Assembly (NCBI RefSeq): GCF_000354175.2
Contig: NC_022349.1
Span: forward strand, 2,580,001-2,612,000
Source of the DNA: Vibrio alginolyticus NBRC 15630 = ATCC 17749
Lineage (GTDB): Bacteria; Pseudomonadota; Gammaproteobacteria; Enterobacterales; Vibrionaceae
DNA: 32,000 nt
Direction: 5' to 3'
A model generated the notes under the pieces. The model was not told where the DNA came from. It worked only from the letters and a program-made list of their open reading frames with translations, and made no database searches. Made by a program: the position numbers and the translations under genes. Below, one piece after another: positions 1 to 24,478 of this stretch; position 1 is the first letter of the stretch, and each line of letters starts with the position of its first letter.

Positions 1-488
1 TTGCCGAAACCTTGCGTGCCCTTCGAAACTACGGTTCACATGTTAAATACCAGAATCTTTATCAAGGATTGAACAGTCGTTTGGATGAAATTCAGTCGGC
101 GATGTTGTCAGTGAAACTGAACTACCTTCCAGCGCAGACGAAAGCGCGTCAGGAGCTGGCGGCATTTTACTTACGCGAAATCAACAACCCGAATATTATC
201 TTGCCGGAAGTGACAGAGCCTGAGGCACATGTATGGCATTTGTTTGTGGTGCGAACTTCACACCGAGATGCATTGGTTAAGCATTTATCAGAGCATGGTA
301 TTCAAACACAAGTACATTACCCGATAGCGCCGCATAAACAGCAGGCTTATAAAGAGTTTGGTCATCTGTCATTAGCGTTGACTGAGCAGTTACAAAATGA
401 GGTGCTGTCATTGCCAATGTCGTCCTACTTGAGTGAAGACGAGAGTCAAGAAGTAGTCGATGCAATCAACTCTTTTAAGGTTGAGTAA
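1..488 (+). CDS. DegT/DnrJ/EryC1/StrS-family PLP-dependent sugar aminotransferase, C-terminal ~160 aa only (5' end outside window)
   Basis: The frame is open to the window edge, so the TTG at 12 is not a real start. The translation ([28 protein letters not shown]) fits the C-terminal domain pattern of nucleotide-sugar aminotransferases. The stop overlaps the next start (TAATG at 486-490). Confidence 0.85.
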
Positions 489-1420
489 TGACACAAGAGC
501 ATGTGCAAGTATTAGAAGACGTGGTTTATGTCTTCTTTTGTTATAAACAATCTCGTTATCTTGAGAAAACATTGCCAGCGGCATTGAACCAGACCGTGTG
601 GCCAAGCCAATTATTGATCTTGGATGACTGTTCACCTGATGATAGTCATAAAATAATTCTATCGCTTTTAGAGTTTGCGCCTAAAGGATTAAATATTGAA
701 TATCGCCACAATAAGCAAAATGTTGGTTTAGTTAGCCAAATCAACTCCTTGCGGGGGCAATACCAAAATAAGCTTATTATTGTACAAGCTGGCGATGATA
801 TAGCGATGCCGAGCCGAGTTGAGGAAACTTATGAAGCCTGGTTGAAAAATGGCAAACCAAGCTTAATTATTGGTGGTTACGACAAAATTTCTGAGCAAGG
901 CGATGTTATTGAGTCATTCGAATCGATTAAGCAAAATAAAAAGCCGTACACACTCGAAAATATTATTAATAGAAAGTGTGCAGTAGATGGTTGTTGCGCC
1001 GCTTTTACCTCTGATGTACTGAACGAGTTTGCTCCTTACAACAAAGACATCATCAATGAAGATCGCATCAATGTCCTTCGAGCCTTTTTGTTAAATGGTA
1101 TTCATCATGAAAACAAAAAATGGATCCAATATCGATTGGGTGGCATATCAACGTTCGCAAAAGAAACACGTGAAGAAAGGTATGACAACACAGTAATTAA
1201 TGCTCAGCGTGAACTGCAAGATCTTAAAATGAACTTGCGAGATGCAGAGAGTAAAAACGCCACTAAAGTTGTGAGTGCGATTAAAAAGCGTATGTGTACC
1301 GCTGAGTTTATGGCATCACTTTCACAATCAAAGTCTGCTTTGTACAGCGAAGCGATTTGTTATTTTGTTAAAACGCTGGATTATCGAACGGTTTTAAAAG
1401 TTTTGCGTAGGTTAAGATGA
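488..1420 (+). CDS. Family 2 glycosyltransferase
   Basis: 310 aa. The N-terminal GT-A signature is VVYVFFCYKQSRYLEKTLPAALNQT...LLILDDCSPDDS, followed by a later GDD acidic motif. It is translationally coupled on both sides (TAATG upstream, ATGA at 1417-1420). Confidence 0.8.
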   Translation: MTQEHVQVLEDVVYVFFCYKQSRYLEKTLPAALNQTVWPSQLLILDDCSPDDSHKIILSLLEFAPKGLNIEYRHNKQNVGLVSQINSLRGQYQNKLIIVQAGDDIAMPSRVEETYEAWLKNGKPSLIIGGYDKISEQGDVIESFESIKQNKKPYTLENIINRKCAVDGCCAAFTSDVLNEFAPYNKDIINEDRINVLRAFLLNGIHHENKKWIQYRLGGISTFAKETREERYDNTVINAQRELQDLKMNLRDAESKNATKVVSAIKKRMCTAEFMASLSQSKSALYSEAICYFVKTLDYRTVLKVLRRLR

Positions 1421-2280
1421 ATAAAATTAAAAATATAAAGCAATCGATAAGTATGAAGAGGCATTTTTCTTCAACTTTCCGTTCATTCAAAAAGCGAAGC
1501 GATAAAAGCACTGATTCACCTAAAGACTTTTATCGTACACATGAGAAATGTACGGTTTTAGGTAATGGACCATCCTTAAAGTCAGATATTAATAGTATTG
1601 GTACAGATAGTGATGTGATTGCTGTTAATCATTTCTCAGAGTCTGAGCATTTTACGGCGTTGAAACCTAATAAATATATTTTAATTGATAGCTATTTCTG
1701 GGATGAAACCACCCATAGCTCTCTGGTGGAAAAAAGAGATAAATTGTTTAAAGATCTAAATGAACTTGTGTCTTGGGAAATGCAATTGATTATTCCTGAC
1801 TTTGCTGACAGAGAGTTCATTCAAGGCAATATCAAAAACAGCAACATAGCGATAAAAGTGCTGCGAGCAATTCCTAGTAATGTAACTAATATTAAATATG
1901 GCCCAATGGCACTATCTTCTGGTATCGTCGCACCTCCAGCTGTCAATGTGCTTATCTTTGCTGTGTATGTAGCAATTCTATGTGAATATGATTCAGTGGA
2001 AATATTTGGAGCGGATATGAGCTTCCATAATGATGTCCATGTTGATCAAGAGAGCAACCAGCTTTATATGGTCTACAAGCATTTCTATGGAAAAGAAGAG
2101 AAGTTGCCGCTCCTAGAAAATCCTCAAAAGGTCAAACCTTTTAATATGACGGACTTGATGCGATTAACTTTCTTGACGTTTTATGCACATCAACTGTTAA
2201 ATAAATGGGCCGATCTCAAAGGGGTAAAAATCGTGAATAGGTCTAGTTTCTCTATGATCGATGCTTATCCTAGACGATGA
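1417..2280 (+). CDS. Putative ulosonic-acid (sialyl-type) transferase, GT42 / DUF115 (MptE-like) fold candidate
   Basis: 287 aa. VLGNGPSLKSDINSIGTDSDVIAVNHF resembles the AGNGPSLKEIDY...DVFRCNQF N-terminus of Campylobacter Cst-type sialyltransferases and Maf/DUF115 proteins. A later VEIFGADMSFH resembles the GIDFY region. The assignment rests on motif recall only. Confidence 0.5.
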   Translation: MNKIKNIKQSISMKRHFSSTFRSFKKRSDKSTDSPKDFYRTHEKCTVLGNGPSLKSDINSIGTDSDVIAVNHFSESEHFTALKPNKYILIDSYFWDETTHSSLVEKRDKLFKDLNELVSWEMQLIIPDFADREFIQGNIKNSNIAIKVLRAIPSNVTNIKYGPMALSSGIVAPPAVNVLIFAVYVAILCEYDSVEIFGADMSFHNDVHVDQESNQLYMVYKHFYGKEEKLPLLENPQKVKPFNMTDLMRLTFLTFYAHQLLNKWADLKGVKIVNRSSFSMIDAYPRR

Positions 2281-2287
2281 AATGACA

Positions 2288-2323
2288 GGTAAATAGACGC
2301 TACAATTGTAATGTCTATTTACC
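2288..2323. terminator. Long hairpin between convergent genes (candidate bidirectional terminator)
   Basis: GGTAAATAGAC (2288-2298) pairs perfectly with GTCTATTTACC (2313-2323). The loop holds the self-complementary TACAATTGTA. It lies in the 48-bp gap between the stops of the + operon and the - cassette. The flanking T/A runs are weak. Confidence 0.5.
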
Positions 2324-2328
2324 GATGA

Positions 2329-3018
2329 TCATTTATTTTTCTGTAACCACATAGATTCAGCGAAAGTAAAGTCCTCTGGCCAATCTATATCAATTGAGCT
2401 CTCTGCATCCTGTATGTACATCGAAGGCTTTAGTCCAATTCGATCATTTAGCTTTTTGTAGTTTTCTACACTATTTAAAAAGACTGAGCTATCGATTTCA
2501 TAAAGAGGTTCAATTGTCTGAGTTCTAGGCCATTTTTCTATATTACGATCGTAGCTAATTGGCTTATCTTTATTCCAAATAAACCCACGTAGTTCTTTGA
2601 CCGTCATTAATGAATCATAACCTTCCGTGAGTGCTTGATTATACTGTTTGATAATAGCGCTATAACCTGACTCGTCTAAGAATGGTGAGGTTACATGAGT
2701 CCAAAGTACGTGACCCGTAGTAATAATCGAAGGAACATATCTAATAAGATCATCAGTGCTTGTTGAACTTGCCCCTAGGTGCTCTGGGCGTTCATCTATT
2801 CGTATGCGAGAATCTTTATATGTTGAAGCAAAATCCAGTACAAAGTCATCGTTTGAAGATACGACTATCGAATCTAGGTCAGTTATATTGATTAACTGAT
2901 CCAGTTTGATTTTTAATAACCCACCTTTTACACCTGCAAAGTCTTTGGTATTTTTGTTTGGGATACGTTCACTGCCTTTCCGGCATGGTAGAAAAACATG
3001 GACACTCATGCTTACCAA
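2329..3018 (-). CDS. CMP-sugar-acid synthetase family cytidylyltransferase (acylneuraminate / CMP-Kdo synthetase-like, CTP_transf_3)
   Basis: 229 aa. The N-terminal motif VFLPCRKGSERIPNKNTKDFAG matches the (A/C)R.GSK(R/G)(I/L)P.KN signature of NeuA/KdsB/legionaminate cytidylyltransferases. It overlaps the upstream HAD gene by 7 nt. Confidence 0.8.
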   Translation of the reverse strand: MVSMSVHVFLPCRKGSERIPNKNTKDFAGVKGGLLKIKLDQLINITDLDSIVVSSNDDFVLDFASTYKDSRIRIDERPEHLGASSTSTDDLIRYVPSIITTGHVLWTHVTSPFLDESGYSAIIKQYNQALTEGYDSLMTVKELRGFIWNKDKPISYDRNIEKWPRTQTIEPLYEIDSSVFLNSVENYKKLNDRIGLKPSMYIQDAESSIDIDWPEDFTFAESMWLQKNK

Positions 3019-3647
3019 CTCCTTAGAATATTGAAACCTTCACTTTTTGATAAGCTTTCAAGCTCTTCTTTTACATTTGAAAAAGGAAGATAGCCAAGAA
3101 AATCAATATTATTCTCTTTGGCTGCGTGAAAGTCTGATAATGCGTCACCGATCATTAGAGCCGCGCCTGAAGACTCCTTTAGGATGGTTGCAACGTTATC
3201 TGCTTTCGCGGTAGGTGATCCTAGAATTAACGTAAAATATTGCGCCAGCTCTCTTTTAACAAATACTTCTCGTAATTCGTCTTGAGCAGATCCACTCGCT
3301 ACATAGAGTTTGGCTGGGCAACCTGTAATTGCTGCAATAAAATTAGGCGTCAGTTGAGCTTCCATGTATAGCTCTTCACACTGCTTTGAGTAGCAGTTTA
3401 GTATACGTTCGTACAATGCTTCATCTGCATTTGTGATGAAATGTTCAACAAAGTAACTCACATGATGAAAACGCGATTTGCCAAAATTAGCTTTAAAATA
3501 AGTGCAACACTTATCTATTTCGAGCTCTGATACTTGGGCCATGCGTAAAGCATTACGCATGGCATCAATTTTGAGGTTATTTGAGTCTAGGATCACGCCA
3601 TCGCAGTCAAAAATAACAGTATCATAGCCATTAAATAGCGGGTGCAT
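3012..3647 (-). CDS. HAD-superfamily phosphatase (subfamily IA-like)
   Basis: 211 aa. HAD motif I is VIFDCDGVILDS and the C-terminal motif is MIGDALSDFHAA. It overlaps both neighbours (17 nt and 7 nt). Confidence 0.8.
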   Translation of the reverse strand: MHPLFNGYDTVIFDCDGVILDSNNLKIDAMRNALRMAQVSELEIDKCCTYFKANFGKSRFHHVSYFVEHFITNADEALYERILNCYSKQCEELYMEAQLTPNFIAAITGCPAKLYVASGSAQDELREVFVKRELAQYFTLILGSPTAKADNVATILKESSGAALMIGDALSDFHAAKENNIDFLGYLPFSNVKEELESLSKSEGFNILRSW

Positions 3648-5241
3648 AAATAGACCCTGCTTTTACTGGATAAGTGGTTGGGGTTAACGCTTGAATTGAT
3701 GTACTTCCAAACTGCTGACTAACCATGCTAAAGATCTCATTCATTTCCATTTGGCGTCGGTCAGTCACATCATAACCATCAAAACCAACGAGAGATATCT
3801 TCTGCGCTTGACCTATAAAAGCGATACATAACGCATATGCAGCGGTATTATCATACGGTAGTGTACAGTAGTTTTTATGGGCGGTGAGAGTATCCTTCTC
3901 TATGGTGCTACTGTAATCAATCATAGAAATATTACTAAATTTACTTAGCTCGTCTTCGTCAAAGCGGTTCTTTGGCAAAAATACGGGTTTGGCTACCTCT
4001 GAGTAATGGCTGCTTTCTGACAAGTATTTAGAGTTATGAGATACAGCAAAGTAATCGAAAAGCTCAGTGTTAATCTCATGCTTTGTATTGATGCCAATTA
4101 CGATAGGCTTTCGAGTCTTAATGTATGTCTCGATCGCGACTCTATGTGTTGCAGCATTAGGCGTATTAGTGACCAGTAAAATTTCTTTTCCTGAAAAGAT
4201 CCCTGATAGGTCTGATTGGCTTTCAGTTGGTTGGCTTATTTTCCCTACAGTAAGCGCTTCTTCTAAGACATCACCATTATAGCTTGTCGTACCTTCTAGC
4301 TTTTTTAAATGCTCGATAGCACCAACAATTTCTTCTGTTCCGTAATTAGGATTAGAAAGCATATTCTGAATATAAGTTGGGTGAATATCGTTTTTGGCTC
4401 CCAAGTAATATAGAAGGCTTGAGCCCCAACCGTATCTTCTTTGCATTGGCTCAAAATGGCGAATAACTAGTTCATATATTGCTGTTGGCAAGTATTTATC
4501 TAGTCCATCAAGTTCGGCGAGCAGGTTTTCGGTCTGGGCGTTCCCAGCGCCTCGTCCCATTCCGGTAACGGTCACATCCAACCATGTAACACCATTCGAA
4601 CGAGCTGTCATCGTATTAGACATTGCTTGACCCATGTTGTTATGGGTGTGGATGCCAATGTCGCCATCCCAGTTTTGCTTTACAATTTCGGCAATGCGAG
4701 TGACTTCTGCACTATCCATATTACCGAGAGAGTCAGCAAAATAGATGACGTCAGGGTTTGCTTTTGCTACCGCCTGTACTTTTTCCGCTATAACCACGGA
4801 TGGTTTTCCGCCCGCTTGCATCAGATTTAAGCCAACGATATACCCCATTTCTTTGAAAGCTTTAATCATGCTTTCACACTGCTCTGCTTCATTGAAATGT
4901 GCCGCGATACGAACGAGATCAACTTTACTTTCTTGTGCTGGTACAAAAAGATCATTGATGGCAGCGACAACAGGTTTACCCGCATCTAGCAAAGTTTTTG
5001 CGTCAACCATTACGCCGTATGTCGGACCTTTCGGTAGGTGTAGCGTGTTTAGAAACTCTTCAGTCGTATAAGCAAATGGACCACTGTAAACAGACTTAGG
5101 ATAGTTACGAAGCCCTAACTCAACATAATCAATTTTAGCTTTTGCAACTGCTGTGAGGTAAGCGTCAACGACTTCTGGTGAAAAGTCCCAGTGGTTATAG
5201 TAGCCACCATCGCGAAGAGTACAGTCTAAAATTTTTTGCAT
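3631..5241 (-). CDS. DRE-TIM metallolyase (HMGL-like / DmpG-type pyruvate aldolase) domain fused to an uncharacterised ~200-aa C-terminal domain
   Basis: 536 aa. The N-terminus MQKILDCTLRDGGYY and the metal-binding HTHNNMG are hallmarks of 4-hydroxy-2-oxovalerate aldolase and HMG-CoA-lyase-like enzymes. Residues ~340-536 form an additional domain ending in the ISLVGFDGYD motif. Confidence 0.75.
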   Translation of the reverse strand: MQKILDCTLRDGGYYNHWDFSPEVVDAYLTAVAKAKIDYVELGLRNYPKSVYSGPFAYTTEEFLNTLHLPKGPTYGVMVDAKTLLDAGKPVVAAINDLFVPAQESKVDLVRIAAHFNEAEQCESMIKAFKEMGYIVGLNLMQAGGKPSVVIAEKVQAVAKANPDVIYFADSLGNMDSAEVTRIAEIVKQNWDGDIGIHTHNNMGQAMSNTMTARSNGVTWLDVTVTGMGRGAGNAQTENLLAELDGLDKYLPTAIYELVIRHFEPMQRRYGWGSSLLYYLGAKNDIHPTYIQNMLSNPNYGTEEIVGAIEHLKKLEGTTSYNGDVLEEALTVGKISQPTESQSDLSGIFSGKEILLVTNTPNAATHRVAIETYIKTRKPIVIGINTKHEINTELFDYFAVSHNSKYLSESSHYSEVAKPVFLPKNRFDEDELSKFSNISMIDYSSTIEKDTLTAHKNYCTLPYDNTAAYALCIAFIGQAQKISLVGFDGYDVTDRRQMEMNEIFSMVSQQFGSTSIQALTPTTYPVKAGSIYAPAI

Positions 5242-5344
5242 AATGGATATTCTTTTTAAGTTAAACAGGTAAAGTGCTTAGTACAGTAAAACATACAAGC
5301 TTAATAGTAAAAGTGAGGTATTTATCAAACTAATTATTAAGTTA

Positions 5345-6619
5345 TTACTTATCACTTTGGGGGAGTAAGCTCATTGTTCGGTTTAGAGCGCCTTGATTGG
5401 ATGAGGCCCATTTATTAGCATGCAAAGCTCGGAGTAAATATTTATCTTGTTGAGAAATGATCTCTGTAGTCCTTAGGGCAAGGGTCGTTGAGTCTGGCAC
5501 AATTAAGATACCATCCACAGCTAGTAAGTTTTCAACAATCTCCTTAAAGTTGAAATAGCTAGGGCCAGTGATTATGACTTTTTCTAACATGGCAGGCTCT
5601 AGCACATTGTGCCCACCAACCTTATCTCCAATTAGGCTTCCACCCATAAAGCAGATGTCCGCTGCGCCCATCAACGTTAGCATCTCACCCATTGTATCGC
5701 CGAGATATACTTGAGTATTCGTCTCTACTGCATGCGTTGAAGTACGACGCACAGTTTTAAATCCTTGCTGTTGGCAAAGCGTGAATACATCATCAAATCG
5801 TTCTGGATGGCGAGGAACCAAAACGAGTAAAGCATTTGGAAGAGATTTTAAAACTTGTCTATGTGCATCTAATACCTGTTCGTCCTCGCTTTTGTGGGTG
5901 CTAGCTGCAATCCAAATCGGACGATCGTTTCCAAGTTGGGCTCGAAGCTGCTGTCCTTGCTGTTTCACTTGCTCTGATATTTGAATATCGAACTTAATCG
6001 AGCCAGTAACGGATAGTTTCTTTTTCTCAACGCCTAAGCGTTCGAAGCGCTCTGCATCTGAATCCGTTTGGCAGAGTACTTGAGTTAGGCATGGATGAAG
6101 CTGGTTAAAAAGCCGCTGTATTTTGGCGTAGTTCTGACACGATTTTTCAGATAGGCGCGCATTTACGACAGTTATAGGGACACCCGCTTTGTGAACATTG
6201 TGAAGCGTGTTTGGCCACAGCTCAGTCTCAATGATCAACATCTGTTTTGGTTGCACTGCTTTAAGAAAACCTTTGATAGCAAACCCAAAGTCAATTGGCA
6301 TATAGCGGTGTTCAATTAAATCACCCAACTTAGCAATCTGTTCAGCTCCGGTACTTGTTGTTGTTGTAACTAGAATAGATTGTTCGGGGTTTTGTTCCTT
6401 AAGGGCTTTGATTAAAGGTGTTGCTGCTATGCTTTCACCAACAGATACGGCATGTATCCAAATAGGTTTGTCGTTGCTTTTTAGCTTGGGGGTTATGCCA
6501 AAATGCTCTTTCCAGCGAGAGCCGAACTTAGGCTTATTTGGTTTGCTCTTGTACAAACCAAATAAAAGCAGCGGTGACGCTAGGGCGAGTAGTAAGGTAT
6601 AAACAATACGAACTAACAT
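5345..6619 (-). CDS. waaA: 3-deoxy-D-manno-octulosonic acid (Kdo) transferase
   Basis: 424 aa. It has an N-terminal membrane anchor, the WIHAVSVGE motif, and a GT30-like C-terminal half (GGSL..KVGGHNVLEPA). It sits in an operon with waaF. Confidence 0.9.
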   Translation of the reverse strand: MLVRIVYTLLLALASPLLLFGLYKSKPNKPKFGSRWKEHFGITPKLKSNDKPIWIHAVSVGESIAATPLIKALKEQNPEQSILVTTTTSTGAEQIAKLGDLIEHRYMPIDFGFAIKGFLKAVQPKQMLIIETELWPNTLHNVHKAGVPITVVNARLSEKSCQNYAKIQRLFNQLHPCLTQVLCQTDSDAERFERLGVEKKKLSVTGSIKFDIQISEQVKQQGQQLRAQLGNDRPIWIAASTHKSEDEQVLDAHRQVLKSLPNALLVLVPRHPERFDDVFTLCQQQGFKTVRRTSTHAVETNTQVYLGDTMGEMLTLMGAADICFMGGSLIGDKVGGHNVLEPAMLEKVIITGPSYFNFKEIVENLLAVDGILIVPDSTTLALRTTEIISQQDKYLLRALHANKWASSNQGALNRTMSLLPQSDK

Positions 6620-7668
6620 GAGCTTATCGTAATGGCGTCAAGTTTTTGGATGCTATCTAGCACTTGCTTAGGCGAAAGTTCTGTCAAGCACTTAAGGTGT
6701 TTGTATTGACATTCACGCTGGAAACAAGGGCGACAATCAATATCGGTATGAACAATCTCCACTTTTTCTGCGAGTGGGGGGGTGTACTTCGGTGAAGTTG
6801 AGCCATACACGGCAACAACATTACAACCAACCGCAGCTGCCACATGCATTAAGCCTGAGTCATTCGCGACAACTGTCTTGCATGCAGCAAGTAGGTCGAC
6901 CGCTTCAATTAAGCTGGTTTGTCCTGCTAGAACATGAATGTTCTTATGGAATTGCGTCGGGACAAGTGCGCGAATATTGTTACAAGTCTCTAAGTCCTTT
7001 TGAGAACCAAACAACCAGATTTGATGCCCAGATCGAGCCATTTGCGTCGCAACTTCAGCGTAGTGTGTTTCGGGCCATTTTTTGGCAGGACCAAACTCTG
7101 CTCCTGGGCACAGTCCAATGGTTGGTTGGTCTTGCGTTAAGTTGAATTTTTGGATCGTGGCTTTTTGCTCTACTTCGTTGATTGCGAGGCGTGGGCGAGG
7201 TAAGGTTTCAAGCCCGCCAAGAGAGTTAGAATCCACCATTTCTGCTTTTGGATAAGCTAACGCTACATAGCGCTCTACCATGTACTGAAAAGACTTCATG
7301 TTAGGGCGTAAGTCATTCAATAAGCCATAGCGCATTTCTCCTTTCCAGCCAGTACGAAGAGGAATGTTGGCAAACCATGGGATCAGTGCTGATTTCGCTG
7401 ATTTAGGCAAGATATAGGCGTGGTCATATTGCTTTTCACGTAATGATTTACCAATTTCCCTGCGGCCTAATAAGTTAAACTCACCATGACCGATAGGCAT
7501 TTCAATCGCTTGGTGGATTTCTGGCATACGCTCAAGAATCGGTTTACACCATCCTGGAGCGATCACGTCAATTTGGCTATCTGGATGGCGTTGCTTTAAT
7601 ACGATATATAACGATTGCGACATTACCATATCGCCGACCCACGCAGGGCCAATGACTAAAATCTTCAT
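6613..7668 (-). CDS. waaF: ADP-heptose:LPS heptosyltransferase II
   Basis: 351 aa. MKILVIGPAWVGDMVMSQSLY, TGWKGEMRYGLLND, GLCPGAEFGPAKKWP and NDSGLMHVAAA align closely with E. coli RfaF as I recall it. Confidence 0.9.
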   Translation of the reverse strand: MKILVIGPAWVGDMVMSQSLYIVLKQRHPDSQIDVIAPGWCKPILERMPEIHQAIEMPIGHGEFNLLGRREIGKSLREKQYDHAYILPKSAKSALIPWFANIPLRTGWKGEMRYGLLNDLRPNMKSFQYMVERYVALAYPKAEMVDSNSLGGLETLPRPRLAINEVEQKATIQKFNLTQDQPTIGLCPGAEFGPAKKWPETHYAEVATQMARSGHQIWLFGSQKDLETCNNIRALVPTQFHKNIHVLAGQTSLIEAVDLLAACKTVVANDSGLMHVAAAVGCNVVAVYGSTSPKYTPPLAEKVEIVHTDIDCRPCFQRECQYKHLKCLTELSPKQVLDSIQKLDAITISSC

Positions 7669-8387
7669 GCTTTGTTTTTCCAGTATAGGAATTTCAAAAT
7701 TGACTCATAAGTTCTAAAAAGTTCAGCGTATATTTTATTCGCAAGAGTCATTTTGGATTTATCTTTTCTTTTACCACCAATCGTCGAAGCAATCTCTGCT
7801 CTAGTAAAGAGATCTGGAGACACGCTGTAAACTTGAACACCATGTCTCCATGGTTTTTCCATGTAGTCATCGACTGGTTCAATAAACTTTTGAGCATGCA
7901 TAACAAACTTTGAGGCTGCTTTAGGTGTGACAATATATGCGGTGGTACCACAAGTTCCAGCAGAGTAGCCCCCTAACATATGATTATCATCAATCGGTAC
8001 GATTGGGGTGAATGCACACTTCTGAGTGGCAGACAACTTGATATAGTCATAAGTAGAAGTCAATGGAACGGCATGTTCGAGTACTCGCTTCAGCCCTTCT
8101 ACGGGGTCGACGTTGTCTTCTAAGATGACGATCGGTTCATCAAGCTCAACACAGCGAACCCACAACTCGTAATGGCTTGCAAAGCAGGCGACTTCACTAG
8201 TTTTTAATTGATACCCTTTACGGCGTAGAGTAATGGTAGGACGACTTTTTTCTGAATGAAGAAAACGGTCAACAGAGCCATCTATTGCATCAAAAAATTC
8301 AAACGTAATGCCTTGTTGTTTTAACTTTTCTTCAATACGTTCTCGGCGATCCAGCGATCGAGCCAAGCTTACGACAAATACTTTCAC
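7665..8387 (-). CDS. Family 25 glycosyltransferase (LPS/LOS core glycosyltransferase, Lic2B/LgtB-like)
   Basis: 240 aa. MKVFVVSLARSLDRRERIEEKLKQQGITFEFFDAIDG is the typical GT25 N-terminus. It has 4-nt overlaps with both neighbours. Confidence 0.8.
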   Translation of the reverse strand: MKVFVVSLARSLDRRERIEEKLKQQGITFEFFDAIDGSVDRFLHSEKSRPTITLRRKGYQLKTSEVACFASHYELWVRCVELDEPIVILEDNVDPVEGLKRVLEHAVPLTSTYDYIKLSATQKCAFTPIVPIDDNHMLGGYSAGTCGTTAYIVTPKAASKFVMHAQKFIEPVDDYMEKPWRHGVQVYSVSPDLFTRAEIASTIGGKRKDKSKMTLANKIYAELFRTYESILKFLYWKNKA

Positions 8388-9370
8388 TGCACTTTCCAGT
8401 CGCTGTTATATCTTGGTTTAAACAAATTGTAATAGTTATTGCCGTCTTCTTGAGAGTGCAGCAACTGTAGTACCCACATATATTGTTCGGGTTTATCACC
8501 GACAAAATATTCAATGGCTTCATTACAGGTACGAGCGTCTTGCTCTTCGCCTTTATCCAACTCAAACGCCGGTAAAATCTCAATATCAAACGTACCATCT
8601 TCAGTATTCATCGACGCAAATAGAGGCAGTACTTTTGAGCGTGATAGTTTCGCAATTTTGCCTAAACCAGGTAGCGTTGCTTTACGTGTTGCAAAAAAAT
8701 CCACAAACACACTATGCTCTGGGCCGTGATCTTGATCAGGTAGATAATACCCTACATAGCCATCTCGAATGGATTTCAGAAAAGGCTTAATGCCACCTGA
8801 GCGTTCATAAACACGACCACCGTATTGGACCCTTTGCTTGTGCATCAGCCAGTCAGCAACATCATTCTTTTGCTTCTTCGCCATTGCAGAAACTGGCATT
8901 CCCATTGAAGCGAGCAAGATAGCAGGCACATCAATAGCCCAAGAGTGGGGAACCATTAAAATTACATTTTCGTTGCTATCAATGTGCTGTCGTAAAATGT
9001 CTAGGCCGCGAATTTGGCAACGGTTCTGAAGCCATTTTGGTGAGCGTAAACTTAGTAACCCGAAGCGAAAAAAGAACATGGCCGCTGTGTAGAGTGTTTT
9101 TTCTATCAAAGCTTCACGTTCTTGGAACGATTTTTCCGGAAAACACAGCTCAAAGTTAACCCTCGCTCGATGAGCTGGACCTTTGTGGGATTTAGACAGT
9201 TTTTTGGCTATGGTTTTCGCCAACCACTTTTGTAAACCCAGTGGCATTAATGATAACGGTAAAAATAAGATAACACCTAACCACGTGCCCCAGTACTTAG
9301 GCGACAGAAAGTGGCGCTTAAACTCAGGGTTATATGCTTTGGGGTCGAAGTCATCACGTTTTATTGTCAT
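8384..9370 (-). CDS. lpxM: Lipid A secondary (late) acyltransferase, MsbB/LpxM-like
   Basis: 328 aa. YYLPDQDHGPEHSVFVDFFATRKATLPGLG and PHSWAIDVPAILLAS closely match E. coli MsbB (YYLPDQDHGPEHSEFVDFFATYKATLP). The acyl-chain specificity cannot be read from the sequence. Confidence 0.85.
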   Translation of the reverse strand: MTIKRDDFDPKAYNPEFKRHFLSPKYWGTWLGVILFLPLSLMPLGLQKWLAKTIAKKLSKSHKGPAHRARVNFELCFPEKSFQEREALIEKTLYTAAMFFFRFGLLSLRSPKWLQNRCQIRGLDILRQHIDSNENVILMVPHSWAIDVPAILLASMGMPVSAMAKKQKNDVADWLMHKQRVQYGGRVYERSGGIKPFLKSIRDGYVGYYLPDQDHGPEHSVFVDFFATRKATLPGLGKIAKLSRSKVLPLFASMNTEDGTFDIEILPAFELDKGEEQDARTCNEAIEYFVGDKPEQYMWVLQLLHSQEDGNNYYNLFKPRYNSDWKVQ

Positions 9371-9496
9371 GGCGTGTCTAGTTACCTATTCGTGTACGGG
9401 CGAAGTGGTTTAAATGAGAAAAAGATAGTTAGGAATGATACAGGCTATTGCACTTGAGTAAAGGTGGCAGGTTATGGTTCTACCACCTTGTGGTGC

Positions 9497-10438
9497 TTAA
9501 CTGTTTTGGATAGTTAAGTATTCGGCAACGCCTTCTGCAACTGTCTTGAATTCAACATCACAACCTGCGGTGCGCAGTTTGGTCAGATCCGCTTGTGTGA
9601 ATTCTTGGTAAGCGCCTTTTAGGTGCTCAGGGAATGGGATGGTTTCAATTTGGCCTTTGCCATGATGCTTGATAACTGCTTTTGCTACCTCTTCAAAAGA
9701 TTCAGCACGGCCAGTACCACAGTTAAAAATGCCTGATACGCCGTTTTCTAAGAACCACAGGTTTACTTTACATACATCACCAACGTAAACGAAGTCGCGT
9801 TTGAATGATTCGCTGCCCGCGAACAATTTAGGATTTTCACCTGCGTTAAGTTGGTTGTTTAGGTGGAATGCAACTGATGCCATGCTACCTTTGTGGTCTT
9901 CACGTGGGCCATATACGTTGAAGTAGCGGAAGCCGGTGATTTGAGAAAGGGTCTCACCATGTTCTTCAGCATCTTGCCATAGGCGACGAACGTAGTTATC
10001 AAACTGCTGTTTCGAGTAACCGTATACATTCAGTGCGCCTTCGTATTCGCGTTCTTCAACGAAAGTCTCTGTATCGCCGTAAGTGGCTGCTGAAGAAGCG
10101 TATAGGAATGGAATCTCGCGATCTAAACAGTAATGCAGCAGCTCTTTAGAGTACTCATAATTGTTTAGCATCATGTACTTACCATCCCACTCAGTCGTTG
10201 CAGAACAAGCACCTTCGTGGAAAATTGCCTCAATCGGACCAAAATCATCGCCCGCCATAATTTGGGTCAGAAAGTCGTCACGATCCATGTAATCTGTGAT
10301 GTCCAGATCAACTAAGTTCTTAAACTTTTTGCCATTTTTTAGGTTGTCGACAACCAGGATATCGTTAATACCAGCTTCGTTTAGTGCTTTAACAATGTTG
10401 CTGCCGATCATGCCAGCGCCACCAGTTACGATGATCAT
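9497..10438 (-). CDS. hldD: ADP-L-glycero-D-manno-heptose 6-epimerase
   Basis: 313 aa. It has [14 protein letters not shown] (Rossmann fold), YGYSK (catalytic Tyr/Lys), and near-complete similarity to Vibrio GmhD/RfaD as recalled. It is the classic left junction gene of Vibrio O/K-antigen loci. Confidence 0.95.
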
Positions 10439-10550
10439 AGAACTTCCACCATAGATTAAAATTTTCTCAGGAATTCTAGCAAGAAACGAAAAGTAGCGCT
10501 ATTGGAAGCAGGAAGATAGGTTTGAGTCTTCTATACTCAGTATCTAGATA

Positions 10551-10575
10551 TGAAAAAGGGAGCCGCAGCTCCCTT
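10551..10575 (-). terminator. Rho-independent terminator of the yjbEFGH-like operon
   Basis: The - strand reads AAGGGAGC-TGCG-GCTCCCTT followed by TTTCA (+ strand GGGAGC 10558-10563, GCTCCC 10568-10573, A-run 10553-10557). It lies about 10 nt after the yjbH stop at 10586. Confidence 0.85.
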
Positions 10576-10585
10576 GATTACTTTA

Positions 10586-12778
10586 TTATTCCACATCCGA
10601 ACGGTTAGGCCTTTGATACCAAGGATTTCGCTCGTCGGTCAACTCAATCAAGCTGTATTTACGTCCGAGTTTCTGTCCTCCGTCACGAGTAAGAGGCTGC
10701 CAACTAAAGTTCGCACGATTGTTGCTTGGCTTAACGGTCATGATGTCAAATGGAATCGACAAGTAGAAACCTTTGGTAAAGCTACCTTCACCAAATTCAT
10801 CCGCAGACAAGTCTGTAAATGACGCAAAGGCACCAGCAATTACGCCACTCTTGAACTGCTTAGAAACATTAATTTGTGTACCAACATCACCAGCTAGGAA
10901 CTGACCAACATCGACTTGGATCATCAAATCTTGTAGGAATTCCCATTGAGGGTAGTAGTAACCAGATACAAAACCAGTGAAGCCTTTATCAATAACTTGG
11001 AACGGACGTCCATATTCTGGCACGTTTTGCCATTTATCATCGTAAACACCGAAGTAACTTTGTGGATCACGTTGAGAAATTAAGTTGACGTCAGCGCCAA
11101 TCGCCCAGTTAGCTCCTTGTGGACGGTAAAGAAACTCGGTACCGACTCCAGCAAACATACTCTCCAGATAGCCCGCGTAGAATTGCTGATCCATCGTATC
11201 GGAATACTCTTGGAACCAAGTCAATTGTAAGTTTGACATGGTTACAGCATGTTCATTTTGGTAAGCGCGGAACATGGTGCGAACACGAGGAACAGTAGTG
11301 CCATCAGGTGGAGTGACATAAATAAACTTATCGTAGTTGTTATACCAATCCCAGTATAACGAACCGCCAATTTCAAGGTTGTCCGTCAGCCAATATGAGG
11401 CATTACCGCTTAGCCCTACACTAAAGAGATAGAAATCTTCAGCGTTTCCGAGAGTTTGAACTAGTTTAGGTGCAAAGCCCCAATCAAAACGTTCAAAACC
11501 ATCGTAGATAGATTCTCCCGTAGGCTTAGTAGTAGCCCTTGAGGTTGCATCTTCTATTTTCGGATTGATGTAATTAACTTGGGCAAAGTCGCGATATTTC
11601 TCTTTGGAAATAATCGTTTGTTCACCGACTAAGCCTCGGCTACGTTCATTGATCGCATAGGTATCAATATCGTCAGGCATTTCATTATGGAGTACAGCTG
11701 CCGCTTTTTCGTGTGCCTCTGTACGGTCACGATATTTTTTCTGCTCACCAACGACAGTTACGGTATTGTTATCAACATAAACACGCGTGTTTCGATAGCC
11801 AGCAATTTTGTCTAAATCTTCTGTTACACGTTCCCAATCAACATCAGACAGTTCTTTGGGTTGGTTATCTTCCACTTCTGGGGTTGGTGTGTCTCGCCAG
11901 AATGATGGCATGTCATTGAAATTAGTGTTTAGCGTTAAGCCTGCTACTAAAGTATCGCCGCGTTCATAACTTAAACGAAAATCGGCCATGCCTAGACGGT
12001 AGAGAACACCAAAGTTCCATGGTGTGTGGGGAGACATATCTATACCGGCCTGAACAACTGGATAGTCTGTGCTGTAATCGTTACCGTCATATTCAAGCTT
12101 GAAGCGAAGAGGCTTATGAAGAGTTTGATATTCAATACCACCAAAAAGGGCAGCAGGGCCTTTAAAGGCTCTATCGAAGTTAGTTGTTCCGCCAGTAGAT
12201 AGAAATTCTGAAGGTCTATCGCAGAATTTGTCTGATGCTTTACAAAAAGGGTTTGTGACCGTATCTCTAGTTCCTAGGTAGCCCCAGCCCATACCTAAAG
12301 TAAAATCAAAAGTACCTAATTTCGAATTAGAATATCGTTTTGTCGCCGCAAGAAACTCAGCATCAAAAAGACCAGTACCAGCAAAGTCTCGTACCCCTAG
12401 GGCGATTTCTGGCATGTATTCAGATTCTTCCCATAATCTAAATTTAAAATCTATCCCCTTGTCTGTATATTCATTGTCAACATCGGGGAAGGATGACGAA
12501 TAAGGCAGATCGTGAACTCGAGTGTACCGGATAGTTGTTTCTAACCACGGCATGAGTTGCAGAGTCACATTGTAAAAAAGGTACTCATCACTACCTGTTA
12601 CAGAAAAGTTGAACTCCCCTTCATGAGCCATACGTCCGGTTGGCATCTGCATTAAGCCAACACCACCAAAGTCAGATTGAGAAGGCTGTAAAGAGGGAGC
12701 CTCAAAGGGCATGTCTTGAGCCCAAACCAATGCAGGGCCCATTAAAGAAAGGGCTAAGCTTTTTCTAATTGGCATCAT
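10586..12778 (-). CDS. yjbH: YjbH/GfcD-family outer-membrane exopolysaccharide biogenesis protein
   Basis: 730 aa with a signal peptide (MMPIRKSLALSLMGPALVWAQD). It has aromatic/Gly-rich beta-barrel-like composition and the size and position of YjbH. It is the fourth gene of an E-F-G-H order operon, with an ATGA overlap to yjbG. Confidence 0.8.
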   Translation of the reverse strand: MMPIRKSLALSLMGPALVWAQDMPFEAPSLQPSQSDFGGVGLMQMPTGRMAHEGEFNFSVTGSDEYLFYNVTLQLMPWLETTIRYTRVHDLPYSSSFPDVDNEYTDKGIDFKFRLWEESEYMPEIALGVRDFAGTGLFDAEFLAATKRYSNSKLGTFDFTLGMGWGYLGTRDTVTNPFCKASDKFCDRPSEFLSTGGTTNFDRAFKGPAALFGGIEYQTLHKPLRFKLEYDGNDYSTDYPVVQAGIDMSPHTPWNFGVLYRLGMADFRLSYERGDTLVAGLTLNTNFNDMPSFWRDTPTPEVEDNQPKELSDVDWERVTEDLDKIAGYRNTRVYVDNNTVTVVGEQKKYRDRTEAHEKAAAVLHNEMPDDIDTYAINERSRGLVGEQTIISKEKYRDFAQVNYINPKIEDATSRATTKPTGESIYDGFERFDWGFAPKLVQTLGNAEDFYLFSVGLSGNASYWLTDNLEIGGSLYWDWYNNYDKFIYVTPPDGTTVPRVRTMFRAYQNEHAVTMSNLQLTWFQEYSDTMDQQFYAGYLESMFAGVGTEFLYRPQGANWAIGADVNLISQRDPQSYFGVYDDKWQNVPEYGRPFQVIDKGFTGFVSGYYYPQWEFLQDLMIQVDVGQFLAGDVGTQINVSKQFKSGVIAGAFASFTDLSADEFGEGSFTKGFYLSIPFDIMTVKPSNNRANFSWQPLTRDGGQKLGRKYSLIELTDERNPWYQRPNRSDVE

Positions 12779-13533
12779 TGTGGTCTCTTTTTGGAATTTG
12801 GTATCAATTGAGTGAGTAGGCGGATAATATCTTGGTCCATTTCGGAATATTCAAGATCACCAAACGGAATATATAACAATGTCAGAGGTGGTAAGTAATA
12901 TTGTGTTGTTAACCAAGCTCCGTGATGCGGCTTAACTATGTGACCATCTGGATAGATCAACACTGGCGGTGTTGATAACGCACCAATATTAGTTTTCAAA
13001 TTCTCTATCTGTCTCTGCAAAGGGATGCCAGCTTGCTCCGTAATGGAATACACGCTATTTAGGTTTCCCAAGAAGTACACTTTCTCTTCGCGCAGAGGGC
13101 TTGCGAGCAGGAAATTGCCGCGCAACAGTGGGTTGTCGAATTTATTTAGTCGAATTTTATCAACATCGATCGCAGACAGTAAGCGCGGTGCAAAGCTTTG
13201 CTTCTGAATGAACTTGTAGAATGGATGTGCGACCAAATTGTGTTGAATCATTTGATTGAGCACCGAGTTCTTTAAAGCGGTTGAGGTTTTCTCGGCGCGT
13301 TCCGATTTATCAAACAAAGTGGTACCAAGAGAGTATTGCAGAGAGACGCCTTGCTCCCTAGCAAGTGCTAACACACTTTCTAAACGAGCCGTCCCTTGAA
13401 ATTGTAGCCGTTTGCCTGCTTCTAGCAATTCAACATTTAATGGTTGCAATGCAGAGGTTTCTGTTTGAGCGAAGCTAGACATGCTCAAAAGCGGCATGAC
13501 CAAACCGAATACTGTGAGTAGTTGCTTGCTCAT
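12775..13533 (-). CDS. yjbG: YjbG/GfcC-family periplasmic capsule biogenesis protein
   Basis: 252 aa with a signal peptide (LLSMSSFAQ). Operon position and size match YjbG/GfcC. It overlaps both neighbours by 4 nt. Confidence 0.7.
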   Translation of the reverse strand: MSKQLLTVFGLVMPLLSMSSFAQTETSALQPLNVELLEAGKRLQFQGTARLESVLALAREQGVSLQYSLGTTLFDKSERAEKTSTALKNSVLNQMIQHNLVAHPFYKFIQKQSFAPRLLSAIDVDKIRLNKFDNPLLRGNFLLASPLREEKVYFLGNLNSVYSITEQAGIPLQRQIENLKTNIGALSTPPVLIYPDGHIVKPHHGAWLTTQYYLPPLTLLYIPFGDLEYSEMDQDIIRLLTQLIPNSKKRPQ

Positions 13534-14210
13534 GATTTGCTGTATCCCTTCAAAATGGTTAACTCGACCGGAATCATATTTGGCCCTAGATGTTGTATGG
13601 TTTTAACAACTTGACCTTGTTCATTGACCCAATAGTAGTTTTCGACCGATTGAGAAAGACTGCTAAACTCAACAACTTCTTTATATACGTTGGTCATAGT
13701 GCTAGAAATAGGTGTTGTTAACGTTTCTTGGCCTGAGTAAGAACGCGTTATATTTGCAGGAAAGCCATAACGGTATTGTGTTGCCCAATCGTATGAAAGT
13801 GCGTAGTTGACAGAGGTTGAGTGTAAAGAAAAATCTGGAACGTCACCGTAAACACCCGCTAAGTCGCCACTCTGTAGTCCAATCGTTTTGACGATGTGCC
13901 CATTTTCTGTAACGATCATGGCTTTATCGGCGCTTACCCATTTCAATTGTATTTTTCCATTTTGCGGATTTCGTTCCGCGAAAGCTAAAACGACAAACAC
14001 CTGCTTCTGATTTCCAAGTTTCAAATAGGCACTGGCATATGGAATAGCATTGATTTCTTCTGGTGTCATCTCTACATCGATGTAGTTACCGTAGGCTTCT
14101 TGGACGGTTGCTGAAACATCGTTGAATTTCTGTGTACAGCCAAAGAGTACAAGGAGTAATGGAAGAATGAGGAGTTGGCGTATCCATTTAGGTATTCGGA
14201 AGATATTCAT
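13530..14210 (-). CDS. yjbF: YjbF/GfcB-family lipoprotein
   Basis: 226 aa. It has a lipobox LLVLFGC at the end of a signal peptide and a good RBS (AGAGGGA) upstream of the ATG at 14210. Its position sits between the yjbE-like and yjbG-like genes. Confidence 0.75.
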   Translation of the reverse strand: MNIFRIPKWIRQLLILPLLLVLFGCTQKFNDVSATVQEAYGNYIDVEMTPEEINAIPYASAYLKLGNQKQVFVVLAFAERNPQNGKIQLKWVSADKAMIVTENGHIVKTIGLQSGDLAGVYGDVPDFSLHSTSVNYALSYDWATQYRYGFPANITRSYSGQETLTTPISSTMTNVYKEVVEFSSLSQSVENYYWVNEQGQVVKTIQHLGPNMIPVELTILKGYSKS

Positions 14211-14221
14211 TGATCCCTCTT

Positions 14222-14256
14222 ACAAATAAAATCGCCCTGACTTAATCAGGGCGATT
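14222..14256 (-). terminator. Intra-operon rho-independent terminator/attenuator between the yjbE-like gene and yjbF
   Basis: A perfect 10-11 bp stem, ATCGCCCTGA (14231-14240) with TCAGGGCGAT (14246-14255), has a 5-nt loop. On the - strand it is followed by TTTTATTTG. It sits 24 nt after the yjbE stop and immediately before the yjbF RBS. Confidence 0.8.
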
Positions 14257-14279
14257 GGCTTCTGTTCTACAAAACGAAA

Positions 14280-14498
14280 TTAGTTAGAAGTAGAAGTAGA
14301 AGTAGATGTCGAAGTAGATGTTGAGTCGCTATCTGACGCTGCAACTGCTACTACAGTTACTGCGGCTGCTGCACCTACACCTACAGCTGTAGTGCCAGTT
14401 GCTGACGCAGAAGCTGCGCCTGTTGAGCCTGCTTCTTCTGCTGCAAATGCAGTTGTTGCGCTTAGAGCCATAAGAATAGCTAGAGCTGTATTCTTCAT
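14280..14498 (-). CDS. yjbE: Small secreted Ala/Gly/Ser/Thr-rich protein, YjbE/GfcA-like
   Basis: I prefer the internal ATG at 14498, which has AAGGA 7 nt upstream and gives MKNTALAILMALSATTAFA as a signal peptide. The mature peptide is low-complexity A/G/S/T and ends in SDSDSTSTSTSTSTSTSN. It is the first gene of the yjbEFGH-like operon. Confidence 0.7.
   Translation of the reverse strand: MKNTALAILMALSATTAFAAEEAGSTGAASASATGTTAVGVGAAAAVTVVAVAASDSDSTSTSTSTSTSTSN
14286..14321. repeat. Hexanucleotide tandem repeat (AGAAGT)n encoding the (Ser-Thr)n tail
   Basis: There are six consecutive hexamers. Three are perfect AGAAGT (14286-14303). They are followed by AGATGT, CGAAGT and AGATGT. Confidence 0.9.
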
Positions 14499-14779
14499 TA
14501 TTAATCCTTGTGTATCCGGTATAAAAACATCGATGTTTGGTAGCATAAAAAATGCTCCAAATTATATTCTAGATAAAAAAGCCTTAGCATGTAAATAGTT
14601 TCTTATTTTGCTATGGCTTTCGATCTCATTTCTAACACCAGCGTGACATTGCACGGTTATCTTGCTCCCTTGCTTGCTGATAAACTATCAAGAGTGCATA
14701 ATTTGTCTGCCTATTTCCTTCAGCACTAGAGGTTTGAAGTCAATAGGTCGTTTTTACTTAGACCATATAGAAAGCGATA

Positions 14780-14816
14780 CAGTGGCTTACGCTCCATGCC
14801 TCAGGGCGGTAGCGTG
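14780..14816 (+). promoter_or_regulatory. JUMPstart element containing an ops site (RfaH-dependent antitermination signal)
   Basis: CAGTGGCTTACGCTCCATGCCTCAGGGCGGTAGCGTG. It starts with the JUMPstart-type CAGTG and ends with the ops core GGCGGTAGCGTG (14805-14816). It is on the + strand, in the untranslated leader upstream of the long + operon. Confidence 0.9.
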
Positions 14817-14903
14817 CCAGCTCTTCAGTATTTAATGATCTGCATAGCAAAATTTAACTTTGCCTTGTCAGTCAATATTATTACCAGTACTAGGAACTTT
14901 TAC

Positions 14904-15422: not shown

Positions 15423-15486
15423 TTTAAATACCTAGAGCTCAAACTTGGGGCTAGGGTCTTTTATTCAATTATTATAGTGACATACC

Positions 15487-18189: not shown

Positions 18190-18371
18190 ATGACTCCACC
18201 CTAGTTCTAGTTTGAATTAGGGTGGGAATTATTCATTGATAGCAATAGGTTCAGGCTCAGATATCTGAGTATACCTAATGGCTATAGCTATTGATTTATT
18301 GGCTGGAGCTCAGCCTCATCAAAGTCATTCTATTAGCGAAGATTTCGCTATAGCGAAGGAAATTTGATTAA

Positions 18372-19349: not shown

Positions 19350-19430
19350 AGCTATAAATTTAAATAGGCTTAACAGATCTTTTATTATTAACTATATAAT
19401 AACGAATTATATTTTATTAAGATAAGATAA

Positions 19431-20708: not shown

Positions 20709-20762
20709 GTTAGTCTCAGTATTTATTAAAAGCACAAGAACGAAATATTAATTGGAGAAAAA

Positions 20763-21779: not shown

Positions 21780-21890
21780 GCGTTTATATTCTTCTCTCAA
21801 ATTAGTATAAATATTTAGAGTGGTAATTATTTTCAGGGCGGAACAAATTAAAAAACTTCGCCTATAGCAGTTTATTAAGGTTTTAGTAGC

Positions 21891-24445: not shown

Positions 24446-24478
24446 TGCTCTTATCTTTTTACTAAAGGTTGAATTATA

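Follow-up and report, generated by a model that had tools for sequence, protein, structure and literature searches.

The stretch of DNA analysed here, called the window, comprises 32,000 nucleotides (nt) of contig NC_022349.1 from Vibrio alginolyticus NBRC 15630, and coordinates are window positions unless they are given with a locus label (L). It harbors a three-gene cassette on the minus strand, a candidate for the biosynthesis of a 3-deoxy-2-ulosonic acid activated with cytidine monophosphate (CMP). The first gene, ALD (3631-5241), encodes 536 amino acids with the motifs DCTLRDGGY and HTHNNMG. The second, HAD (3012-3647, 211 amino acids), shows the signature FDCDGVILDS, and the third, CTF (2329-3018, 229 amino acids), contains the motif LPCRKGSERIPNKN and corresponds to wvcP of V. 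parahaemolyticus. A plus-strand gene (1417-2280, 287 amino acids) converges on the cassette. Its product, named WvcO in UniProt, carries the motif GNGPSL and is DUF115/GT42-like. The open reading frames (ORFs), motifs and positions of the four genes were found as described in an earlier, sequence-only reading of the window. Public annotation is generic; PGAP names ALD 'aldolase catalytic domain-containing protein / pyruvate carboxyltransferase'.

ALD and HAD overlap by 17 nt (3631-3647), as reported earlier. The 7-nt overlap of HAD and CTF (3012-3018) exists in the ORF call, but requires a TTG start of CTF. An AGGAG site precedes an ATG at 3009, which is therefore probably the true start and leaves a 2-nt spacer to HAD instead of an overlap. 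Hand counts of guanine plus cytosine (GC) proved exact (22/60 at 1441-1500 and 23/60 at 2401-2460). The lower GC relative to the core genes was confirmed, although the difference is only modest (0.392 in 1417-5241 vs. 0.436 in 5345-10438). WvcO gene and CTF are separated by a convergent gap of 48 nt with a hairpin at 2288-2323, which is probably a bidirectional terminator. It comprises a 12-bp outer stem (by eye, an 11-bp perfect inverted repeat) and a 3-bp inner stem, with a folding energy of -18 kcal/mol and a z-score of -6.4; none of 200 shuffled sequences folded equally well. Directly upstream of the cassette and on the same strand lies waaA (5345-6619), the gene of the 3-deoxy-D-manno-octulosonic acid (Kdo) transferase, with 603 bits to the NCBIfam equivalog NF004388, over its cut-off. 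Beyond waaA follow a GT9 heptosyltransferase, a GT25 enzyme, a lipid A acyltransferase and a gmhD-like epimerase. Because waaA adjoins the cassette, the latter was assigned to a lipopolysaccharide (LPS) core locus.

Pfam searches with the four proteins returned the families proposed from the motifs. ALD matched HMGL-like in residues 3-247 (7.7e-30), HAD matched HAD_2 (1.8e-11) and Hydrolase, and CTF matched CTP_transf_3 (PF02348) with 1.1e-10 and 42 bits, above the cut-off of 22.6 bits. WvcO reached MptE-like (PF01973) only below the gathering threshold, with 5.5e-4 and 20 bits against a cut-off of 34.6 bits. A NeuB- or KdsA-like ORF, whose lack had been noted before, was found in the window neither by tblastn (best E 0.015) nor by Pfam scans. 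The place of the phosphoenolpyruvate (PEP)-dependent synthase, KdsA (DAHP_synth_1) or NeuB, is taken in the cassette by the HMGL-like aldolase. Judged from its protein families, the cassette appears to be a variant of the CMP-ulosonate pathway without the defining PEP-dependent enzyme.

ALD is a fusion of two domains. Residues 1-335 (4237-5241, minus strand) comprise a pyruvate-aldolase-like TIM barrel and a DmpG-type helical 'communication' region. The C-terminal domain of about 200 amino acids, residues 338-536 (3634-4230, minus strand), is DUF115/MptE-like and has NGPS-type and GxDGY motifs of its own. The earlier description of a DRE-TIM/HMGL-like aldolase was thus correct for the N-terminal part and missed the second domain. 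ALD homologues carry PF00682 plus PF01973, and PF01973 is precomputed on many of them.

Best NCBIfam matches of ALD were DmpG-type 4-hydroxy-2-oxovalerate aldolases with 118 and 108 bits, covering residues 3-248; for TIGR03217 the 108 bits compare to an equivalog cut-off of 286 bits. Claisen-type homocitrate and isopropylmalate synthases did not exceed 71 bits in NCBIfam and 38 bits in the PDB, in part of the domain only. In the PDB sequence search, 3dxi was found with 207 bits and DmpG (1nvm) with 84 bits. An AlphaFold model of full-length ALD (pLDDT 83.8) retrieved 3dxi in Foldseek, followed by 4lrs, 1nvm, 4jn6 and 8ih7 (E 1e-14 to 1e-20), with 1nvm, 4lrs and 4jn6 near 1e-15; the ranking agreed with that of the PDB sequence search. 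Across 57 ALD homologues, no variation was seen in the metal and enolate residues R10, D11, H198 and H200, which align with their counterparts in MhpE and DmpG. ALD reads RDGGYY where DmpG and MhpE have RDGSH and LeuA has RDGEQ. LLLPGI, the hydrophobic aldehyde pocket in MhpE and DmpG, gives way to a polar GVM[VI][DN]xx in the ALD family. A gene for a DmpF-like acylating aldehyde dehydrogenase partner was found neither in the window nor in the 80 related loci described below. ALD was grouped with the class II pyruvate aldolases because DmpG-type enzymes match best and the motif RDGEQ is missing; a grouping with Claisen-type acetyl-CoA enzymes, considered in the sequence-only reading, was not observed. 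ALD is predicted to be pyruvate-aldolase-like, yet no DmpG equivalog.

The HMGL-like superfamily spans further chemistries, and weaker matches to them were seen. ALD could thus be a Claisen synthase, a lyase or an oxaloacetate decarboxylase, while CTF would activate a non-ulosonate for a decoration with an organic acid or polyol phosphate. The loss of the catalytic His21 of DmpG and the position of every score under the curated cut-offs fit such an explanation. However, the best full-length matches are pyruvate aldolases by sequence as well as by fold, and ALD lacks both the Claisen motif RDGEQ and RDxHQS, the motif of carboxyltransferases. The neighbouring GT42-like enzyme points to a CMP-ulosonate as donor, and every characterised CTP_transf_3 enzyme makes, to our knowledge, a CMP-ulosonate. 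A function outside of pyruvate aldol chemistry is very improbable.

Residues D80 and K82 were considered as a conserved phosphate-binding pair and rejected; they are invariant in close relatives only, and D/N and variable, respectively, in the wider family. Priestia megaterium harbors on a plasmid (L085:5986-6945) a 319-amino-acid homologue of the RDGG clade without the DUF115 domain. Neighbouring genes encode an extradiol dioxygenase, a 4-oxalocrotonate tautomerase, a fumarylacetoacetate hydrolase-family protein and an aldehyde dehydrogenase. The locus resembles a meta-cleavage pathway that lacks a DmpF partner. Since a pyruvate aldolase is expected in such a pathway, this homologue supports an aldolase activity of the clade.

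HAD contains the DxD motif as FDCDG and matched HAD-SF-IA-v1 in NCBIfam, besides weak matches to the beta-phosphoglucomutase and phosphoglycolate phosphatase families. It is of the IA type, not of the KdsC type, had no sequence match in the PDB and is not close to any characterised enzyme. Its presumed function is the removal of phosphate from an ulosonate phosphate. CTF reached 45 bits with PseF and 18 bits with KdsB in NCBIfam, both under the equivalog cut-offs. Its nearest PDB entry is the mouse CMP-N-acetylneuraminic acid (Neu5Ac) synthetase 1qwj (1.3e-6). A polyol-phosphate cytidylyltransferase, raised as an alternative in the sequence-only reading, is not indicated by these neighbours, and CTF is presumed to be a NeuA/PseF-like CMP-ulosonate synthetase.

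The WvcO sequence alone is too divergent for a meaningful PDB match; its motif GNGPSL occupies residues 49-54. The profile of the WvcO family, A5, matched Cst-II with 1.2e-10 over about 200 residues (positions 44-244), Cst-I with 3e-8 and the lipooligosaccharide (LOS) sialyltransferase 9c08 with 1e-7, in agreement with the earlier classification as a sialyltransferase/DUF115-type protein. The match to Cst-II covers GNGPSL and the G-x-D strand. Around His188, the catalytic histidine of Cst-II, the alignment is gappy. WvcO is presumed to be a CMP-ulosonate-dependent glycosyltransferase. Identical ALD, HAD and WvcO proteins occur in V. alginolyticus, V. parahaemolyticus, V. diabolicus and V. antiquarius, and ALD of the V. 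diabolicus reference genome is 99% identical. In this reference, wvcO is split into two ORFs of 97 and 178 amino acids by a 1-nt deletion in an A6 run, changing GGAAAAAAG to GGAAAAAG (L001:13440-13560, compared to window 1680-1800). The split could be a true inactivation, slippage or a sequencing error.

ALD relatives are encoded in the genomes of 513 GTDB species. For locus counts, ORFs were clustered from the 80 best loci and the window, giving 81 loci. ALD is accompanied by CTF in 69/81 and by HAD in 63/81. The cassette genes are almost always adjacent and co-oriented, in the order ALD-HAD-CTF or ALD-CTF-HAD. Their hosts are gammaproteobacteria, alphaproteobacteria, Bacillaceae, cyanobacteria and Pelagibacter, with Shewanella, Pectobacterium, Colwellia and Neobacillus among the cassette-positive genera; one alphaproteobacterial cassette lies in a plasmid polysaccharide locus. 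The remaining neighbours vary between loci, e.g. rml genes, flippases, assorted glycosyltransferases (GTs) and ABC transporters. Natural fusions provide Rosetta-stone links between the cassette functions (P0178, P0184, P0186 and P0221). P0178 combines HMGL-like, DUF115 and CTP_transf_3 domains in one chain of 781 amino acids, and P0221 is a partial fusion of the DUF115 C-terminus of ALD with HAD.

Within 10 kb, a NeuB-like gene was detected in 9/81 loci, a KdsA-like gene in 5/81 and neither of them in 67/81. A second cytidylyltransferase was present in 9/14 of the loci with NeuB or KdsA, compared to 2/67 of the others; therefore, the cassette CTF would serve the aldolase product. Linkage across phyla and a CTF of its own argue for an independent pathway that brings its own enzyme for CMP activation. 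A role as accessory to a NeuB pathway was considered and rejected, as few loci have NeuB and those with NeuB or KdsA usually hold a second cytidylyltransferase. An alternative route to Kdo was rejected as well, because Bacillaceae loci have the full KdsB-KdsA-KpsF-KdsC set alongside.

Four Neobacillus and Bacillus loci (L058, L060, L062 and L065, at about 4000-12400) carry KdsB, KdsA, a KpsF-like SIS+CBS protein and a KdsC-like protein upstream of ALD-CTF-HAD. Directly upstream, two or three GT42/DUF115-like genes are also located, and genes for large proteins (about 560 and 710 amino acids) follow the cassette. The Kdo pathway and the cassette side by side suggest a glycan with two different ulosonic acids. 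Five loci (L049, L055, L061, L080 and L029) contain, within or beside the cassette, an additional class II aldolase from the HpcH/HpaI family (about 255 amino acids); cyanobacteria, a methanotroph and Glaciecola are among the hosts. No CTF was detectable beside ALD in L059, L066, L056, L063, L072 and L074; ALD loci of this kind may represent a variant pathway. An LdpA-like 4Fe-4S protein is encoded near ALD in L059 and in L049, which keeps CTF. L049 and L066 also contain a HisF-like cyclase and NeuB.

The C-terminal domain of ALD was modelled alone with a pLDDT of 92. Foldseek with this domain returned SteA (6e-5) and the archaeal MptE 6-hydroxymethyl-7,8-dihydropterin pyrophosphokinase 8sd5 (5e-4), both weak matches with a TM-score of about 0.5. 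With the whole ALD model, only TIM-barrel matches were obtained. In hhalign, the domain aligned to the standalone DUF115 family with WvcO (A5) at 94% probability; its NGPS corresponds to GNGPSL and its VGFDGY to the GxD motif. BLASTP of WvcO against the ALD C-terminus gave no match, and the homology is visible by profile-profile comparison only. A search of 1.84 billion protein representatives found the domain almost exclusively as the fusion to the aldolase. About 200 cluster representatives carry it at E<1e-30, nearly all of them of about 535 amino acids. Among 22 sequences, about 33 positions of the domain are invariant, many of them polar. The DUF115 domain is an integral, conserved part of the cassette system. 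It may bind CMP-sugars or nucleotides, or act as a transferase, as a kinase-like enzyme or as a regulatory domain, e.g. as a CMP-sugar feedback sensor.

The invariable fusion, the conserved polar positions and the motifs common with the WvcO/GT42-like family would also suit a domain that is itself the conserved CMP-acid transferase, or an aldose kinase, with WvcO as a lineage-specific accessory. In the case of a transferase, the three-gene cassette would make, activate and transfer the acid unaided, in line with the lack of a standalone DUF115 gene in 63/81 loci. On the other hand, the best structural matches are SteA and MptE, while Cst-II and Maf are not among the best neighbours, and hhalign against Cst-II gave a probability of 14%. 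One highly conserved glycosyltransferase across loci that build different glycans would be unusual, and loci without a DUF115 gene hold other candidate transferases (clusters 18 and 34, without Pfam match). A catalytic role of this kind for the fused domain is possible, though rather unlikely.

Marker-gene probes for the O-serogroups of V. parahaemolyticus connect the locus to serotyping: the O7 wvcN probe matches window 581-643 with 63/63 bases (PMC6868019). The O12 wvcP probe matches window 2600-2667 in CTF with 2 mismatches. The gene wvcN (488-1420, plus strand) encodes a GT2 glycosyltransferase (Pfam Glycos_transf_2), and its 3' end overlaps the start of wvcO by 4 nt. It is regarded as context and possibly belongs to the same core-decoration module as the cassette. 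The accession P13266, used in the annotation of one of the genes below, presumably stands for E. coli NeuA. A survey across O-serogroups, proposed in the sequence-only reading, placed the cassette in the LPS loci of O7 and O12 only, with the aldolase orthogroup in 2/12 O-serogroup LPS clusters and TTHB246 (Q53WI0) as its best Swiss-Prot match (VPsero supplements, PMC8443796). In the VPsero gene-content table, the aldolase and the P13266-annotated gene occur only in O7 and O12 genotypes, and the O10 reference has neither of them (PMC8443796).

O10 was rejected as a carrier of the cassette: the MLMA uses wvcP as O10 marker (PMC6868019), but the O10 reference is without the cassette. Where 'O10'-serotyped strains carry wvcP, their LPS clusters are of the O12 or O7 genotype (PMC8443796, Data Sheet 1), so that the 'O10 wvcP' marker probably detects O12/O7-like loci. 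At window 12-488 (plus strand), the window edge truncates a DegT/DnrJ/EryC1 aminotransferase, of which a C-terminal fragment is left. FdtA/FdtB-type genes are present in the O7 and O12 clusters (VPsero table, PMC8443796), and the fragment may therefore belong to a pathway for a dTDP-3-amino-3,6-dideoxyhexose. V. diabolicus (L001) has no DegT/DnrJ/EryC1 gene at the matching position.

For the Vibrio cassette, a self-contained pathway to a CMP-3-deoxy-2-ulosonate is rather probable, with a product made via 2-keto-3-deoxy-6-phosphogalactonate (KDPGal) and 2-keto-3-deoxygalactonate (KDGal) and placed on the LPS core. Its substrates, product and order of steps are inferred. The carbon skeleton would originate from a metal-dependent class II, DmpG-like pyruvate aldolase, not from PEP-dependent KdsA or NeuB. 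Initially, the N-terminal domain of ALD would condense pyruvate with a phosphorylated aldose, in Vibrio most likely D-glyceraldehyde-3-phosphate. The aldol product of these two compounds is KDPGal, i.e. 3-deoxy-D-threo-hexulosonate 6-phosphate. Subsequently, the HAD-IA phosphatase would strip the 6-phosphate to yield KDGal. Condensations based on pyruvate are reversible, and the cassette would therefore need the pull of the phosphatase, which would render the aldol step effectively irreversible. The NeuA/PseF-like CTF (wvcP) would convert KDGal into a CMP-ketoside, CMP-KDGal, and GT42-like WvcO would transfer the acid onto the core oligosaccharide. The proposal that the cassette makes, dephosphorylates, CMP-activates and transfers a 3-deoxy-ulosonic acid is backed by all available in silico tests. 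The general claim, a CMP-3-deoxy-ulosonate made through a pyruvate aldolase, is held with higher confidence than the specific hexulosonate route.

Chemical studies reportedly described a 3-deoxy-hexulosonic acid more than 30 years ago in LPS of V. parahaemolyticus O7 and O12, and the restriction of the cassette to these serogroups fits this sugar. Nonulosonic acids have reportedly been assigned to O2 and to neither O7 nor O12. The D-threo acid is KDGal and the D-erythro acid 2-keto-3-deoxygluconate (KDG), in agreement with the wording of the title of Trigalo et al. Chen et al. (2010) cite only the composition paper by Iguchi, Kondo and Hisatsune (1995). A full-text literature search found no publication on the cassette pathway, its function or the sugar in Vibrio, and no published pathway for this exact cassette, whose existence the sequence-only reading had allowed for.

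With the same logic, pyruvate could be joined to a larger sugar or sugar phosphate, forming a known or other ulosonic acid instead of a hexulosonic acid. Mannose-6-phosphate would lead to 2-keto-3-deoxynononic acid 9-phosphate (Kdn-9-P), erythrose-4-phosphate to 3-deoxy-heptulosonate and a 6-deoxy-hexosamine to a nonulosonic acid. CTF is closer to nonulosonate enzymes, PseF and CMP-Neu5Ac synthetase, than to KdsB, the WvcO family resembles sialyltransferases, and the substrate pocket of ALD is unreadable from sequence. Moreover, the wide occurrence of the family contrasts with the 3-deoxy-hexulosonic acid, which is reportedly rarely described. However, most loci are without genes for hexosamine or 6-deoxy-sugar precursors beside the cassette, and NeuB or KdsA pathways, where present, usually bring their own cytidylyltransferase. 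Kdo as product is disfavoured by the complete Kdo pathway beside the cassette in Bacillaceae, and the O7/O12 restriction speaks for the hexulosonic acid. A different ulosonic acid as the product of the cassette is an unlikely outcome.

Several observations weigh against the KDPGal/KDGal route. In the alignment, the catalytic pair of DmpG, His21 and Tyr291, is replaced by invariant Tyr14 and His287; the two residues in ALD may be a swapped acid/base pair. ALD, CTF and HAD all fall well short of the curated cut-off for each named equivalog. The scheme would work without the DUF115 domain that is always fused to ALD, and may therefore miss a step or have one wrong. A standalone DUF115/GT42-like gene is present in 18/81 loci only. 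The correlation of the reported sugar with the cassette involves two serogroups only, about 1 chance in 66. Finally, the product may differ between lineages with the aldose used, yielding C6, C7, C8 or C9 acids.

The Kdo pathway (KdsA, KdsC, KdsB and WaaA), whose transferase gene is the direct neighbour of the cassette, applies the logic that is also proposed here, of C3 unit plus aldose phosphate, HAD phosphatase, CTP_transf_3 enzyme and transfer to LPS. The proteins are different. The synthase of the cassette is an HMGL-like, metal-dependent pyruvate aldolase with DUF115, instead of the PEP-dependent DAHP_synth_1 type; HAD is IA-type instead of KdsC-type, CTF NeuA/PseF-like instead of KdsB-like and the transferase GT42-like instead of GT30. 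The Neu5Ac-9-P/Kdn route (NANS-NANP-CMAS; Kdn-9-P in Bacteroides thetaiotaomicron) comprises the same triad of synthase, HAD phosphatase and CMP-synthetase, and the nearest solved relative of CTF, the mouse enzyme, belongs to it. Human NANP is also an HAD-IA enzyme. In contrast to this route, the cassette has no NeuB-family synthase, would use pyruvate instead of PEP, and its product probably contains six instead of nine carbon atoms.

DmpG, BphI and MhpE have the fold, the metal ligands, the Arg-Asp enolate motif and the helical communication region in common with ALD. ALD differs in its score, in the exchanged catalytic pair, in the fusion to DUF115, in the polar pocket, in the lack of a DmpF partner and in its location in a biosynthetic glycan locus, not a catabolic aromatic one. 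DgoA, the KDPGal aldolase of the DeLey-Doudoroff pathway, catalyzes the same reversible reaction as proposed here, pyruvate + glyceraldehyde-3-phosphate ⇌ KDPGal. It works by class I (Schiff-base) chemistry, comes from an unrelated family and functions in catabolism. The closest solved structure to ALD, 3dxi, is the N-terminal domain of BVU_2661 from Bacteroides vulgatus, solved alone in structural genomics (TM-score 0.85 on the target, RDGGYY shared); its entry description, 'putative aldolase', gives no function. Among transferases, GT42 Cst-I and Cst-II and the Maf/DUF115 nonulosonate transferases are comparable to WvcO by the profile match of its family to Cst-II and by their LOS/LPS core targets, the presumed target of WvcO as well. 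The donor of WvcO would be a CMP-hexulosonate, in contrast to CMP-Neu5Ac or CMP-pseudaminic acid, and WvcO itself is highly divergent.

More tentatively, and with somewhat more doubt than confidence, the cassette may represent an unrecognised widespread pathway in at least 500 species, with Vibrio, Shewanella, Bacillaceae, cyanobacteria and Pelagibacter among its hosts. It would form short CMP-3-deoxy-2-ulosonic acids of the KDGal/KDG type from pyruvate and triose or tetrose phosphates by the aldolase-DUF115 fusion. In this case, acid-labile hexulosonic acids would be far commoner in the surface glycans of bacteria than chemical reports imply, and the fused DUF115 domain may be a new activity, e.g. 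feedback sensing of the CMP-sugar or a transfer step coupled to the first enzyme. If the pathway proposed for Vibrio is true, it would be the first gene assignment for a 3-deoxy-hexulosonic acid in a bacterial glycan and the first CMP-ulosonate pathway in which a pyruvate aldolase, not a PEP-dependent synthase, supplies the skeleton. The genes wvcN, wvcO and wvcP, already in use as serogroup markers in molecular serotyping, would be explained. A family of 'domain-containing proteins' in hundreds of species, abundant marine bacteria included, would receive a function. Aldolase, phosphatase, CMP-synthetase and GT42-like transferase would also be a compact enzyme set for the chemoenzymatic synthesis of unusual ketosides.

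After the LPS core genes, the window contains a capsule (K-antigen-type) locus (10586-29846), which ends at an rjg-like beta-CASP gene (30086-31402). It comprises YjbH/YjbF-like genes and genes for an outer membrane protein, a Wza-like exporter of 900 amino acids, Wzz, a flippase, an ATP-grasp protein and an Asn-synthase-like protein. An EpsG-type polymerase, two GT4s, a GT2 and an initiating transferase (Bac_transf) are also encoded. Two ORFs of this region, 12775-13533 (minus strand, 252 amino acids) and 26655-27917 (plus strand, 420 amino acids), had no Pfam match at E ≤ 1e-5. In two parts of the capsule locus, at about 18.5-21.5 kb and 23.5-26 kb, the GC content is as low as 0.33-0.37.

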